Below, in pieces: positions 33,001-45,000 of a DNA stretch of 64,000 bases. Within the stretch, counting starts at the first letter, position 1. The number at the start of each line of letters is the position of its first letter. The stretch is from Chitinophagaceae bacterium UBA1953. GTDB taxonomy: Bacteria; Bacteroidota; Bacteroidia; Chitinophagales; Chitinophagaceae. Location of the stretch: the NCBI GenBank assembly GCA_002336115.1, contig DDEN01000034.1, forward strand, positions 33,538-97,537. The letters run 5' to 3'. A program made the position numbers.

Positions 33001-36000
33001 TTTGTATAATTTAGGCCGTTCTTATTTTGATGCAGGTTCGGTTTCGTTTCCTTACTACAAGAAAGCCGATAGTGTTTTCGCTATTTATACAGAAAAATAT
33101 CCCGATCAGGCTTATGGATATTATTGGCGTGGCCGCAGCAGTTGGAGTATTGATACCAGCATGACTAACGCTTTGGCTAATCCTCATTTTGATAAATTTA
33201 TTGAAGTGGCATCTTCGAGTAAAGATTCTGCTACATTCAAAGGCCAGATAAAAGTCGCTTACAAATATTTTATCGGGTACAATGTTTTTGTAACCAAAGA
33301 TTATAAAAAAGCGATTGAATACTGCGATAAAATACTTGCGTTAGATCCGGCCGATCAGCAGGCATTGGACTATAAACGCCAGTTAACAGGCGGCAAACAA
33401 CAGTCTTCGGGAACAACTCCGGGAAAGCCAACTGGCTCCAAACCGGCTTCCGGATCGGGAACTATAAAAAAATAGGAGAATATTTTTTAAATAATGAAAT
33501 CCCTGCATCGTTATGCAGGGATTTTTATTTGCTGTGTGAACATTATTACGCACCCCTGCCTTATTTTTGCACATTCAAAACAGGTTGTTATGAAATGTCT
33601 TGATAATCGGCCTGAGTGTCAGGTTGGTTCTTTGGGGGCAAAACATAACCAGTACCAAAACAAAGCAACAAATGAATTTGTTTTTCTTTTTACAGTCTAA
33701 TCCAACTATTCCGGTTGCACAACAGATAAACGATTCCTCAAATTATTTTCCTATCGGTATCCAGATACTATTTGCAATAGCCTTGGTGGTTTTTATCATG
33801 GTTATTACACATTGGCTGGGGCCACAACGCCCAACCGCAAAAAAACTGGAAAATTTTGAGAGCGGAATAGAAATACATGGTAATGCACGCCAGCCAATGG
33901 CCGTTAAATATTTCCTTGTTGCTATTTTGTTTGTGTTGTTTGATGTGGAGGTGATATTCTTTTACCCTTATGCAGTAAATTTCAAAGAACTTGGGTGGGA
34001 AGGCTTTACTGCTGTGTTGATGTTTGTTGGATTTTTTCTGTGTGGGTTTTATTATATTATTAAAAAAGGTGCTTTAACCTGGGAAGATTAAATACAAAAT
34101 TGAATATTTAACATTGAAGATTGTGAACTTAGAAACTTTGTGATTGTTGTTAAAGCGTACATCTTCAATCTAAAATTATAAATCGCATGTCACGTCCAGT
34201 ACAATTTAATATTAATCCCAAGCCAGTTGATCGTGAAGGTCATATCGGTGTGGTGGAATTACCTGCCGGTCATATTGGCGATGGTTTTTTAGCAACAAAA
34301 ATGAGTGATCTGGTTGGGCTTGGGCGAAAGAATTCTCTCTGGCCACAACCTTTTGCCACATCTTGCTGCGGTATCGAATTTATGGCTACTGCGGGTGCTC
34401 ACTACGATCTTGGCCGATTTGGTGCAGAGCGTATGGCATATACCCCACGCCAGTGCGATGTGTTGATGGTAATGGGAACAATTGCAAAGAAAATGGCACC
34501 GGTGTTGAAACAGGTTTATTCGCAAATGGCAGAACCACGGTGGGTAATTGCAGTTGGTGCGTGTGCCAGCAGCGGTGGAATATTTGATACATACAGTGTA
34601 TTACAAGGCATTGACCAGATTATACCAGTTGATGTGTATGTTCCGGGTTGCCCTCCACGACCTGAAGCAATACTTGATGGGTTAATGAAAATTCAGGATC
34701 TGGTAGGTAAAGAAAGTTTGCGCAGGAGAAACAGCGACCATTATAAAGCATTATTAGGAAGCTACGGAATAGAATAAAGCAAAGAGATAATTTGAGAATC
34801 TGAAATGGAACAGTGCAGGCAGGTGAAGGAAAACATTTTCAAATCATGAAATTTTCAAATTGATATGAGTTTAACAAACGAAATAATTCAGCAAAAGCTT
34901 ACTGAAAAGTTCCCCGGTCAGGTAAGCAGTTTTACAGAACCTTTTGGTATGCTCACATTTGAAGCTCCGAAAGAACTTAATTTAAAAGTGCTGCAGTATT
35001 TGTATGATGATGAAACACTGAAGTTTCGTTTTTTAACCGATTTGCAGGCGGTTCATTATCCAAACGATAAAGGCAGGGAACTTGCAGTAGTGTATCATCT
35101 GCACAACCTGGTTGATAATGTACGTATCCGTTTTAAAGTGTTCACAGATATTAATCAGCCCGATGTTTATACTGCAACACAATTGTTTTTAACTGCTAAC
35201 TGGATGGAAAGAGAAACGTTTGATTTCTTTGGTGTGAATTTCGTTGGACATCCAAACCTGAAACGTATTCTCAATGTGGATGAAATGGATTATTTCCCAA
35301 TGAGAAAAGAGTATCCGCTGGAAGACCAGACAAGAACTGATAAAGACGATGAAATGTTTGGAAGAGGAGGAAGTATTAATTGAGAACCGAAAATTGAGAA
35401 TTAAAAATGAGTGATATTCAAAACATATTATTACCTGAAGGTTCAATTGAAAAGAAAAGCATTACACTTAATGTAGGCCCAACTCACCCGGCAACACATG
35501 GTGTATTTCAGAATATACTTGAGTTGGATGGAGAAAGAGTGTTGTCTTCTGTTTCAACTGTTGGATACATTCACCGTGCATTTGAAAAATTAGCCGAGCG
35601 CAGGCCATTATTTCAGATTACACCAATAACGGACAGGTTAAATTACTGCAGCAGCCCTCTTAATAACATCGGCTGGCACCTCACTGCTGAAAAACTTCTT
35701 GGTGTAAAAACGCCCAAGCGTGTTGATTATATGCGTATCATCATTATGGAACTGGCACGCATAGCCGATCATCTGATCTGCAATTCAATTGTAGGGGTTG
35801 ATACAGGTGCATTGTCAGCTTTTTTTTATGTGATGGAGTACAGGGAGCTGATTTATGAAATTTATGAAGAAATCTGCGGTAGCCGTTTAACAACAAATAT
35901 TGGCCGCATTGGCGGGTTTGAACGCAACTTTACCCCTGCTGCCTGGCAAAAAATTGAAAAGTTTTTGGATGAATATCCAAAGGTTTTAAAAGAGTTTGAA

Positions 36001-42000: not shown

Positions 42001-45000
42001 CAACTGAAGAAAGAAAATTAATGAATACTTTTTTATTAACCATTGACTGGGCATTAGTGCTTGAAAAAACTATACTGATAGCTTTTATTGTTATTTTATC
42101 AATGGTGGTAGCCATGTATGAAACATGGGGCGAACGCAGGATTGCAGCATTTATTCAAGATCGTTTAGGACCTAACCGTGCAGGCCCGTTAGGGTTACTG
42201 CAGCCTTTTGCAGATGCCATTAAGTTGTTTATGAAAGAAGAAATTATTCCGAATGCATCGAATAAATTTCTGTTTATACTCGGCCCTTCAATGGCAATGC
42301 TCACCGCTTTATTAACCAGTGCTGTTATACCTTGGGGTGACAAGATAGAAGTATTTGGCCGTACAGTTTCATTGCAGATTGCTGACGTAAACATTGGTAT
42401 TTTATATGTGTTTGGTGTGGTTAGTTTAGGTGTATATGGAATAATGATTGGTGCTTGGGCAAGTAACAATAAATTTTCATTAATGGGTGGTTTGCGTGCT
42501 GCATCACAAATCATTTCGTATGAGCTGGCAATGGGTATTACATTGATTGCTTTGTTGATGATTACGGGAACACTGAGCCTAAGTGAAATGGTAAAACAAC
42601 AGCAAAATGGATTGTGGAATGTAATTGTACAACCCTTTGGCTTTTTTATATTCTTGGTTACTGCTTTTGCGGAATGTAACAGAACTCCGTTTGATCTGGC
42701 TGAAGCAGAAAATGAACTGATTGGTGGTTATCACTCAGAGTTCAGCAGTATGAAGCTGGGTTTTTATTTGTTTGCTGAATACATTAATATGTTCATCAGC
42801 AGTGCAATTATGGCCACATTGTTTTTTGGTGGTTATGATATTCTTCCTTTCTATGATGAAAGCGTGTGGGGATTTTCGACAAACATAATGGCATTGTTAG
42901 GTGCGGCTGCATTGTTTGCAAAGATTCTTTTTTTCATATTTGTGTTCATGTGGGTACGCTGGACGATTCCACGTTTCCGTTATGATCAGTTAATGAATTT
43001 GGGTTGGAAAGCATTAATTCCACTTTCACTGCTGAATATGCTTGTTACAGCCGCTGTGCTGTTGTGGTTGAAGAAATGATGAGGGAATTGATGCAGCACA
43101 AGAGTGCGACGCAACAAAAGCTGAAAAGAAAAACCGGTGCCGGTAAAAAAATATTTGAAAAACTTTTTAATAAACGTTGATGCAATTAACAAACAGAGCA
43201 AAACAAGTTGATCGCAGACCAATGAACTGGGCAGAAAGAATGTATATGCCTGCTATTCTGAAAGGAATGGGAATTACGTTTGGTCATCTTCTTAAAAAGA
43301 AGGTTACCATTCAATACCCGGAGGAGAAAAGACCTTTCAGCCCTGTGTTTCGTGGTTTGCATATTCTGAACCGTGATGAGGAAGGCCGTGAACGTTGTAC
43401 TGCCTGTGGGTTGTGTGCAGTTGCCTGCCCGGCCGAAGCAATTACAATGGATGCGGCAGAACGTTTACCCGGCGAAGAAAATTTATACCGTGAAGAAAAA
43501 TATGCAGCGAAATATGAAATCAATATGCTGCGTTGCATTTTCTGCGGTTTGTGTGAGGAGGCTTGTCCGAAGGATGCAATTTATTTAACTGAAACTTTTG
43601 CCCCTGCTAATTACAGCCGCAAAAGTTTTATTTATGGTAAAGATAATTTAGTGATTCCTGATCCTGTAAAAGATCCGGAAGGATATAAAAAGGCGAAGGG
43701 ATTAATTGATGAACGTAAGGCGAAAGCCAAACAACAGACTGCTTAATATGACTATTACTGAAATTCTTTTCTGGTTCTTAACTGTGCTTGCCGTTGGCGG
43801 AGCATTGATGATGGTGTTCAGCAAAAACCCTGTTTACAGTGTTTTGTGGTTAATTGTGGTGTTCTTCGCAATTTCCGGTCATTACATTTTACTCAATGCA
43901 CAGTTTCTTGCAATCGTAAACATTATTGTTTATGCAGGTGCAATTATGGTGTTGTTCCTGTTTGTGATAATGCTCATGAACCTGAATGCCGATAATGAGC
44001 CACAGAAAAACAAGTGGCTGAAAATAGCGGGGATTATTGCCGGAGGTTGTTTAATGCTGGTATTTGTTGCAGCTTTAAAGCAATCTGAAACATTGACAGT
44101 GCAGCAGGTTAATATGGGAGGTACGGCGGGTTTAATTCACCAGTTAGGTAAAACATTGTTTACCGATTATGTATTGCCATTTGAAATAAGCAGTGTGCTG
44201 TTCCTGAGTGCAATGGTTGGTGCAGTGGTAATTGGAAAAAAAGAAGATTAAAATTAAATAATTTGAAAATTTGAGAATAATAAACAAATAGAAACTTCTG
44301 TAAATTTTCAAATTGAATAACTCTCAAATTGTATTATGCCGATAAATTATTATATCATTCTTGCAGTTGCGTTGTTCAGTATTGGAGTGGCAGGTGTGTT
44401 AACACGCCGCAACGCAATTATTATTTTCATGTGTATTGAGCTAATGCTGAATGCGGTGAATCTTTTACTGGTTGCATTTTCTAAAATGCACTATGCAACT
44501 GTGGCAACAGGTTTGCCGGAAGCTACAACCGGGGTGGAAGCACAGTTATTTGTTTTCTTTATTATGGTGGTAGCTGCGGCTGAGGTTAGTGTGGGGCTGG
44601 CGATTATTGTAATGATGTACAGGAATATTCATAGTGTGGATGTAAACTTTTTAAACAGATTAAAACATTAAAGAATGTGCGATGTCAGATGTACGCCTGA
44701 CATTGTACATCGTACATAAAATAGTATGAAGAATATGGTTGATTATATCTGGCTTGTTCCGTTATTTCCACTAATTGGTTTTTTAATTAACGGACTTGGA
44801 AGAAAAGGATTAAGTAAATCGGTTAGCGGCATTATCGGAAGTGTTGTTGTGCTTGCATCCTTTGTGATAAGTCTGCTTGTTTTTAATGAAACAAGAGCCG
44901 ATGGATTTACACCTGTTACTGTTACATTGTTTGATTTTATTAATACAGCAGGACTTACAATTCCGTTTGCGTTTCAGGTTGACCAGCTTTCAGCTTTGTT

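Follow-up and report, generated by a model that had tools for sequence, protein, structure and literature searches.

Repeat-bearing spacers of a Complex I operon

The window analysed here, a 64-kb stretch of contig DDEN01000034.1 from Chitinophagaceae bacterium UBA1953, contains on its plus strand a Complex I (nuo) operon, nuoA-nuoN, bounded by terminators at 33496-33525 and 49503-49538. Our subject is the short spacers between the nuo genes, several of which are built of tandem 7- or 8-nt units, in part facing an inverted copy. Most of these spacers are probably occupied by copies of small palindromic cassettes, all of one class, that lack a gene and have in part eroded. The window NuoH is 86-90% identical to Lacibacter proteins, and the host is a Lacibacter-like member of the Chitinophagaceae. 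For comparison, 80 Chitinophagaceae nuo loci (L001-L080) were gathered by NuoH and annotated with the window proteins. The following nuo genes delimit the spacers considered below:

33672-34091, plus strand: nuoA
34187-34777, plus strand: nuoB
34865-35383, plus strand: nuoC
35407-36633, plus strand: nuoD
36665-37153, plus strand: nuoE
37934-39295, plus strand: nuoF
40912-42021, plus strand: nuoG
42021-43079, plus strand: nuoH
43180-43746, plus strand: nuoI
43748-44251, plus strand: nuoJ
44336-44671, plus strand: nuoK
44726-46636, plus strand: nuoL

Seven spacer segments carry repeats; junctions are named by the letters of the flanking genes.

34092-34186, plus strand: nuoA-nuoB spacer; heptads ATTGAAT, ATTTAAC, ATTGAAG and ATTGTGA at 34099-34126; 9-bp stem of 34113-34121 with 34161-34169; minimum free energy (MFE) z -0.07
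34778-34864, plus strand: nuoB-nuoC spacer; AATTTGAR family; 5' arm at about 34786-34800, 3' arm at about 34833-34862; 12-bp closing stem
35384-35406, plus strand: nuoC-nuoD spacer; 23 nt with one arm (…GAAAATTGAGAAT…); 14-nt direct repeat together with the stop codon
36634-36664, plus strand: nuoD-nuoE spacer; AAAATTGAAAATG twice, the second copy giving the nuoE start codon; kept in L001 and L006
37891-37927, plus strand: array before nuoF; AAAGCTA, ATAGCCA, ACAGCTA, AAAGCTA and TACGCTA, adjoining the nuoF start codon; no partner arm
44252-44335, plus strand: nuoJ-nuoK spacer; AATTTGAR family; 5' arm 44253-44281, 3' arm 44296-44330; 19-bp stem
44672-44725, plus strand: nuoK-nuoL spacer; three ATGTNCG heptads against three inverted units; stem of 44675-44688 with 44697-44710

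Periodicity and folding of the window spacers

The self-similarity of each spacer was compared with 500 shuffles. An excess at lag 7 was found in A-B (z 4.5), C-D (3.5), D-E (3.6), the array before nuoF (37890-37933; 4.6) and K-L (4.2), with lag 14 also elevated in these five (z 3.9 in C-D), and the seven spacers pooled give z 4.2 at lag 7 and 3.9 at lag 14. In B-C and J-K the peak falls at lag 8 (z 2.0 and 2.9), with no signal at lag 9 (z 0.0 and 0.8), their repeat unit being the 8-mer AATTTGAR. A sequence-only reading of this DNA had described 7- or 9-nt repeats in most nuo spacers; the heptamers are borne out in five of them, while the longer period is 8 and not 9. The same test detected no periodicity in H-I, in the 15-nt spacer after nuoF or in L-M. 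The sole other 7-nt array of the window lies outside nuo, between two minus-strand genes, and is weak (29039-29077, GTTTATA/GTTTGTT/GTTTGTA…); apart from it, the remaining intergenic DNA of the 64 kb is without this build.

The same reading had assigned a different unit to each spacer. This holds for K-L (ATGTNCG) and the pre-nuoF array (AAAGCTA), whose units are distinct and each unique in the window, the pre-nuoF pattern giving three overlapping matches against 0.15 expected by chance. B-C and J-K, on the other hand, belong to a single family, and A-B, C-D and D-E look by eye like variants on one A/T-rich theme.

Folding was assessed as MFE against 200 dinucleotide shuffles per spacer. Only K-L (MFE -19.8 kcal/mol, z -5.24, 0/200) and J-K (z -2.17, 6/200) fold better than their shuffles; A-B and B-C have closing stems of 9-12 bp and an ordinary total energy, and C-D, D-E and the pre-nuoF array consist of one arm only, so that the earlier description of the spacers as often palindromic applies in full to two of them. 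In K-L, an additional CGTACAT unit follows at 44711-44717. A comparison of 33000-48500 with Rfam gave no match at E up to 1. Both B-C and J-K are gene-less hairpins of the AATTTGAR family. A-B reads as a degenerate hairpin element, L001 and L006 carrying AATTTGAA-type hairpins at the same junction. C-D is a one-armed relic, represented in L001 and L006 by full AATTTGAA hairpins of 82-94 nt, and D-E reads as a relic or a short element. Heptads of AAGCT type also precede nuoF in L001, and a two-armed AAGCT hairpin lies at J-K of L079.

Hairpins within an operon might be attenuators or weak intrinsic terminators, making expression graded along its length, and the 3' arms are indeed often T-rich. 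The terminator scan, however, returned terminator-like sites at the two operon ends only, and we find this explanation scarcely credible. As intrinsic terminators in the strict sense the spacer hairpins were rejected, none having a GC-rich stem followed by a T-run. Hairpins that lack these two features would allow read-through, and in this way could persist inside operons.

Repeat arrays in related nuo operons

The 80 loci provided 558 spacers of 20-249 nt, in which self-similarity is pronounced at lag 7 (z 27.6), lag 8 (20.2), lag 14 (15.8) and lag 21 (6.3) and nil at lag 9 (-0.1). Clean arrays occur in relatives, such as AAGTAAA x12, AAAGTGA x7, AATGTGAT x4 and GTCCATG x6. The usual layout runs from the stop codon through tandem 7/8-mers, a short core and reverse-complement 7/8-mers to the next start codon, and among the 392 spacers of at least 45 nt 43% fold with z < -2 and 25% with z < -3. 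Arrays are concentrated in these spacers between same-strand genes: nuo non-coding DNA has 2.42 of them per kb, as against 0.49 for other non-coding and 0.02 for coding DNA. The 224 arrays (period 7 in 144, period 8 in 80) comprise 127 distinct units, the commonest type being the AATTTGAA of the window (27 arrays, 12 genomes). Units are shared within a genome, or at the same junction, each at about twice the background, so that genome-specific units are a weak tendency. In L048, L053 and L001 successive junctions carry one unit, and the 3' arm before and the 5' arm after a nuo gene are then also complementary; the nuo gene between them is bracketed like a cargo gene.

One explanation of such direct repeats is that a single-strand RNA-binding protein (ribosomal protein S1, a cold-shock protein or similar) binds them and thereby enhances or tunes how the next gene is translated. 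Beggiatoaceae have TAACTGA heptamer repeats for which a role of this kind has reportedly been suggested. The position of arrays directly before start codons would fit, the starts of nuoE and of the four-helix-bundle genes described below lying inside a unit …GAAAATG, and heptamer arrays upstream of start codons have been described in some Bacteroidetes (PMC4679880). Nevertheless, the units diverge widely even inside one operon, half of the arrays stand directly after stop codons as the complementary arm, and the site would be sequestered whenever the spacer folds; we therefore consider this role very improbable.

Alternatively, the arrays could be ordinary simple-sequence repeats born by slippage in A/T-rich spacers, without function or relation to any cassette. 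The diversity of units and the short, degenerate state of the window copies agree with such an origin, as does the reported standing of heptanucleotides as the commonest 5-11-nt repeat class, possibly produced by polymerase slippage (Mrazek 2007, as cited in PMC4679880; PMC4692102). Slippage alone, however, gives no matching inverted array tens to hundreds of bases away, nor the proportion of spacers that fold beyond z -2, and the arms described next add two further objections.

Repeat arms enclose two families of small genes

At the nuo junctions of the 80 loci, repeat arms bracket only two accessory families. GxxExxY genes (TIGR04256, E 9e-36) lie at F-G in 18 loci, between TTTCACGCAAAG…CTTTGCGTGAAA arms with CGCAAAG-type units, while genes for a four-helix-bundle protein (TIGR02436, E 5e-24 for L033) lie at F-G in 8 loci, between AAAAGTN/NACTTTT arms. 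The paired arms form better duplexes than shuffles, with a median z of -5.1 for GxxExxY and -4.4 for four-helix-bundle genes (medians of -4.4 to -6.8 with metagenome loci included). The sequence-only reading had stated that such repeats flank genes of these two families in housekeeping operons, and had suggested looking in related nuo operons for small genes between the arms; the filled F-G alleles confirm both points.

Metagenome contigs were scanned for AATTTGARAATTTGA and TCAAATTYTCAAATT separated by 351-411 nt, and at least 80 loci matched. Among the matches listed, 68 of 80 AATTTGAR-armed loci enclose a four-helix-bundle homologue and none encloses a GxxExxY gene, and all five cargos tested match TIGR02436 (1e-24 to 7e-31). 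The closest solved structure of the four-helix-bundle cargo is PDB 2RLD (2e-28), an entry of five chains. The cargo is co-oriented with its neighbours in 64 of the 68 loci, again among the matches listed, and these cover at least 14 junction types. As read from flanking protein fragments, they include CoA-transferase subunits, an enoyl-CoA hydratase followed by a dehydrogenase, and a fumarate-reductase/succinate-dehydrogenase-like flavoprotein followed by its iron-sulfur subunit. The distance of the metagenome arms from the upstream stop codon and from the downstream start codon is usually at most about 20-25 nt, and often smaller.

To relate these arms to the window, a sequence profile (R1) was made from 22 cargo-bearing 3' arms of four-helix-bundle cassettes and run unfiltered over the whole window, with the following best matches:

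34833-34861, plus strand: B-C 3' arm, E 2.7e-5
44303-44330, plus strand: J-K 3' arm, E 4.1e-5
44253-44281, minus strand: J-K 5' arm, E 5.8e-5
34786-34799, minus strand: B-C 5' arm, E 0.06

All other R1 matches in the window have E > 0.1, including the non-significant ones at D-E (0.8) and C-D (2). These results make both B-C and J-K gene-less members of the four-helix-bundle cassette family. They also bear on slippage, which accounts neither for an arm type that matches the cargo family nor for profile matches at E of about 1e-5 at B-C and J-K, and as a full explanation of the spacers we hold it improbable.

The two cargo families differ in their history at the nuo operon. Identity between GxxExxY proteins is uncorrelated with that between the NuoG proteins of the same loci (Spearman 0.016, 105 pairs), which implies turnover of the cargo at a fixed junction, whereas four-helix-bundle genes in part track their host (0.55).

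Presence, absence and replacement of the elements

Hairpins are found at a given junction in a fraction of 0.02-0.46 of genomes and are universal at none. I-J measures 1-3 nt in the window, L002, L003 and L004; in L001, L079 and L006 it contains a hairpin of 50-77 nt built of GTACG heptads. J-K in the Lacibacter group carries the AATTTGAA hairpin (window, L002), an AAGCT hairpin (L079), a GC-rich palindrome (L003) or a 16-nt relic of a 3' arm (L001), so that three unrelated element types occur at one junction inside one genus. Half-arm relics are present at C-D of the window and at this J-K of L001. F-G exists in filled form, in gene-less form with GxxExxY-type arms (L008, L058, L042) and as armless spacers of 19-27 nt (L004, L006), while in L032 only the last codons of a GxxExxY gene and the 3' arm are left. 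The armless empty state is accordingly a spacer of 1-30 nt, as at I-J of the window and F-G of L004 and L006, and the arms come and go together with the element. The sequence-only reading had suggested that the spacers may be empty sites of a gene-insertion or mRNA-processing system; they are best read as the elements themselves, gene-less and often eroded, rather than as vacant targets.

Sharing of 9-mers between the same junctions of two loci climbs from about 8% to 40-54% once NuoH identity exceeds 85%. This rise with relatedness indicates that spacers are inherited and decay fast.

Stems at the RNA or at the DNA level

The strongest rival to a cassette origin is that the spacers are intercistronic RNA stem-loops selected by the host, for RNase III cutting, for protection against exonucleases or, in a phylum without Shine-Dalgarno pairing, for translational coupling, with the tandem build being merely the way in which the stems arise. 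The roughly five-fold enrichment of arrays in nuo spacers over other non-coding DNA and the way in which arms abut stop and start codons speak for it. So does the K-L hairpin, which is present in four genomes (the window, L001, L079 and L006), with changes on both sides of the stem in 4 of 14 pairs; the unit shifts jointly in the two arms, as AAGTACG/CGTACTT, AAGTAAG/CTTACTT and ATGTNCG/CGNACAT. Furthermore, in 64.5% of spacers the sense strand is the better-folding one of the two, and in 83 spacers against 46 it is the 5' arm that is richer in A, an A/T polarity of moderate degree. Sparse metatranscriptome contigs from root and soil extend from nuoJ into the J-K array of Chitinophaga rupis (L078), and RNase III cuts the intervening sequences (IVS) of 23S rRNA that bear an open reading frame (ORF), which have the same size and shape (PMC4990558).

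In the M-N spacer of L078 (15990-16124), the GTCCATG hairpin is where one metatranscriptome contig flips strand, and a second contig lacks 44 nt of its interior; these anomalies could reflect snap-back or assembly artefacts caused by the palindrome, or variation between strains.

Several observations oppose an RNA function. Hairpins reach at most 46% of genomes at any junction, and close relatives show at one junction no hairpin, a relic or unrelated units. Three window spacers are one-armed, A-B and B-C fold no better than shuffles, and the same arms carry unrelated small genes in many other operons. Functional RNA helices usually show an excess of G.U over A.C mismatches; here, single stem mismatches are G.U in 34 cases and A.C in 26 among gene-less nuo hairpins, and 25 and 25 in cargo-bearing arms. 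Since G.U is not in excess, the arms read as Watson-Crick complements kept at the DNA level. In balance, selection for RNA stem-loops appears to us an unlikely explanation.

A proposed class of small palindromic cassettes

In this context, we put forward that a class of small palindromic cassettes probably accounts for most nuo spacers of the window, which would be gene-less copies in a partly eroded state. Pointing to this reading are the common architecture of the spacers, their enrichment between same-strand genes, the specificity of arms for their cargo, the succession of presence, absence, replacement and relic states at single junctions and the turnover of GxxExxY genes. A complete element spans about 400-470 nt (about 390-470 nt from arm to arm in relatives and metagenome loci), with a 5' arm of 3-6 tandem 7/8-nt units that starts a few bases past the upstream stop codon, a promoterless TIGR02436 or TIGR04256 gene on the strand of its neighbours, and a reverse-complement 3' arm ending a few bases short of the next start codon. 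The gene-less form retains the arms and a core of 10-60 nt as a hairpin occupying the entire intercistronic spacer. We infer that spread or renewal of the elements takes place at the DNA level, whether a folded single strand is copied or recombined or copies exchange sequence with one another; slippage may set the 7-8-nt period, and hairpin-templated correction or conversion could keep the arms complementary. Elements would survive only where read-through transcription is undisturbed and the cargo is expressed.

Several points weigh against a mobile-cassette origin. The window encodes neither cargo family in its 64 kb (tblastn E > 2), and arms of the K-L (GTACG) and AAGCT types have no cargo-bearing form among 160 loci or viral contigs, the A-B type being likewise without a known cargo-bearing form. 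Much of the pattern is vertical, as judged by same-junction sharing, and the same strain, sampled in 2013 and in 2020, gave contigs identical in all spacers, with no sign of ongoing instability. No duplication accompanies the filled as against the empty alleles of I-J, the one junction examined in detail, and no insertion event, target-site duplication or enzyme was seen. The conservation of K-L with compensatory changes also fits selection on the stem, and the strong co-orientation and the enrichment in one operon could reflect a function at the RNA level instead of selfish persistence.

Comparison with described systems

The ORF-bearing 23S rRNA IVS of Coxiella and Leptospira are 428-444 nt long, with a 28-bp terminal stem, an S23p ORF in the loop and cleavage by RNase III (PMC4990558), and are the closest described relatives of the elements considered here. 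A span of about 430 nt and complementary ends that form a long stem are common to both, on our side in the relatives and metagenome loci, the window copies being gene-less. Both also carry a PF05635/TIGR02436 four-helix-bundle ORF in the loop, on the strand of the host transcript (here outside the window), and are sporadic in distribution, the IVS being regarded as selfish. The elements described here differ in lying between protein-coding genes of operons and not within a 23S rRNA helix, in having a second cargo family (GxxExxY), in their abundant gene-less copies and possibly in their arms of tandem 7/8-nt units. By analogy, transcribed arms should form a long double-stranded RNA stem resembling that of an IVS. 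Because IVS stems are cut by RNase III, cleavage or stabilisation of nuo mRNA at the hairpins would be a likely side effect, and cutting of this mRNA at the hairpins is plausible on the same analogy.

Repetitive extragenic palindromic (REP) sequences, in their BIME and REPIN-RAYT forms, are likewise short imperfect intergenic palindromes, often in operons, that fall into families and whose gene-less copies far outnumber the presumed mover gene. Unlike these, the nuo spacers show no conserved GTAG head, have a multitude of units in place of near-identical copies, and have their associated genes inside the palindrome rather than beside a cluster of copies. No Y1/HUH transposase turned up, the window proteins not having been scanned for transposases.

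The short tandemly repeated repetitive (STRR) heptamers of cyanobacteria and the long simple sequence repeats (SSR) of bacteria resemble the present arrays in their head-to-tail heptamers, many units and intergenic position (PMC4679880, PMC4692102). Five window spacers qualify as heptameric SSR (lag 7 z 3.5-4.6), and relatives have up to 12 units. In some genomes heptamer repeats are a feature that is recognised but unexplained (PMC4679880, citing Mrazek 2007; PMC4692102). In contrast to the nuo elements, in which pairing and cargo are central, they are not described there as inverted pairs around a core or gene (PMC4679880, PMC4692102).

Integron cassettes, too, are promoterless, co-oriented small genes expressed by read-through, and their attC sites, imperfect palindromes measuring about 60-140 nt, act in folded single-stranded form. 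The RYYYAAC/GTTRRRY end motifs of attC were not seen on inspection of the arms, however, and the present elements are scattered singly in housekeeping operons and not arrayed beside an integrase. A tyrosine recombinase (4603-5850, minus strand; Phage_integrase 5e-36 and a SAM_4 domain) is encoded 28 kb upstream of the operon. Finally, MITEs (miniature transposable elements with inverted repeats) share with the spacers small size, non-autonomy, inverted repeats and presence/absence polymorphism, but differ in that the I-J alleles show no target-site duplication and no transposase-bearing parent is known.

A more specific proposal, which we offer as a tentative possibility, is that in Chitinophagaceae an apparently undescribed class of ultra-compact promoterless cassettes colonises the junctions of housekeeping operons, with a cargo protein that recognises the 7/8-nt units of its own arms on the folded single strand and so drives their copying, exchange or maintenance. 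The cargo may be an Avd-like four-helix-bundle protein or a GxxExxY protein; gene-less nuo hairpins would then be non-autonomous copies, and the 23S rRNA IVS the known member of the class. A full-text literature search on GxxExxY, TIGR02436 and PF05635 retrieved no published description of these cassettes or of the means by which they move or persist.

Other genes and motifs of the operon

Two pairs of genes interrupt the operon in the window:

37155-37355, plus strand: small two-helix membrane protein, between nuoE and nuoF (NCBIfam/Pfam matches for this gene and the next)
37358-37780, plus strand: VOC/YjdN-like protein, between nuoE and nuoF
39311-40381, plus strand: AbiL-like ATPase, between nuoF and nuoG; GC of the pair about 0.29, no arms
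40371-40919, plus strand: 182-aa partner of the ATPase, between nuoF and nuoG

The sequence-only reading had regarded both insertions as consistent with a system acting at the repeats, a view contradicted by the absence of arms around either pair. The small membrane protein and VOC families also occupy E-F in relatives, again without arms. The AbiL-like ATPase has AbiLi as its best PADLOC match (1.1e-19, full length), and its partner matches no family. This pair recurs at F-G in L041 and L051 and is missing in a related organism of sequencing run X4, with the joint at 39283/40927. VOC, SnoaL-like and AbiL-like genes, a gene for a secreted protein at J-K and a pair at D-E were rejected as cassettes for want of repeat arms.

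Spacers of at least 250 nt are frequent in the family at E-F (40 of 62 loci) and F-G (37 of 68), with 11-12 loci each at D-E, H-I and J-K, and their ORFs form junction-specific families. F-G is an insertion hot spot across L001-L080: besides the 18 GxxExxY and 8 four-helix-bundle genes, it holds three AbiL-like pairs, a 285-aa protein in two loci and, in two more cases, nucleotidyltransferase/HEPN-like pairs (named by inspection). Occupants of E-F across relatives are VOC, SnoaL-like, aspartic-protease-like and DUF2442-like genes; two of these names, SnoaL-like and DUF2442-like, come from inspection.

The window has two slightly varying copies of a conserved core, GTACAAGAGTGCGACGCAA, one upstream of nuoF (37815-37860) and one upstream of nuoI (43090-43125). 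Among nuo loci there are 34 copies (L001, L002, L006, L038, L040, L066 and others), in both orientations and at many junctions, six of them within 21 kb of L040. Its flanks are semi-conserved (…CTGAATAGAATT… and …GCCGGGTACAAAAA), and the core has neither an Rfam match nor a consensus RNA structure. A second motif, CCCCTTTAGGGGATAGGGG(C/T)AT, which folds into a small CCCC/GGGG hairpin with a further GGGG after it, directly precedes nuo start codons at E-F, F-G and J-K in L013, L022, L027, L028, L035, L042, L066 and L071 and is absent from the window. In H-I of L001, L004, L038 and L040 a Bacteroidetes-type -7 box (TAnnTTTG) lies about 20-25 nt before nuoI, which suggests a putative internal promoter in these relatives; H-I of the window (43140-43176) has a version one base shorter, ATATTTG.

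Implications

For annotation, spacers of this type are not to be called terminators or small RNAs. The elements may explain why heptamer repeats have long been noted to be in excess in certain bacterial genomes, and the 23S rRNA IVS would become one case of a wider class. To our knowledge, no function has been assigned to TIGR02436 or GxxExxY proteins; their association with one architecture, in which the arms are specific to the cargo, provides a concrete hypothesis for both. As for this family, the Complex I operon is here routinely interrupted by long double-strand-forming spacers and passenger genes, and this must affect the processing and translation of the 14-subunit mRNA.

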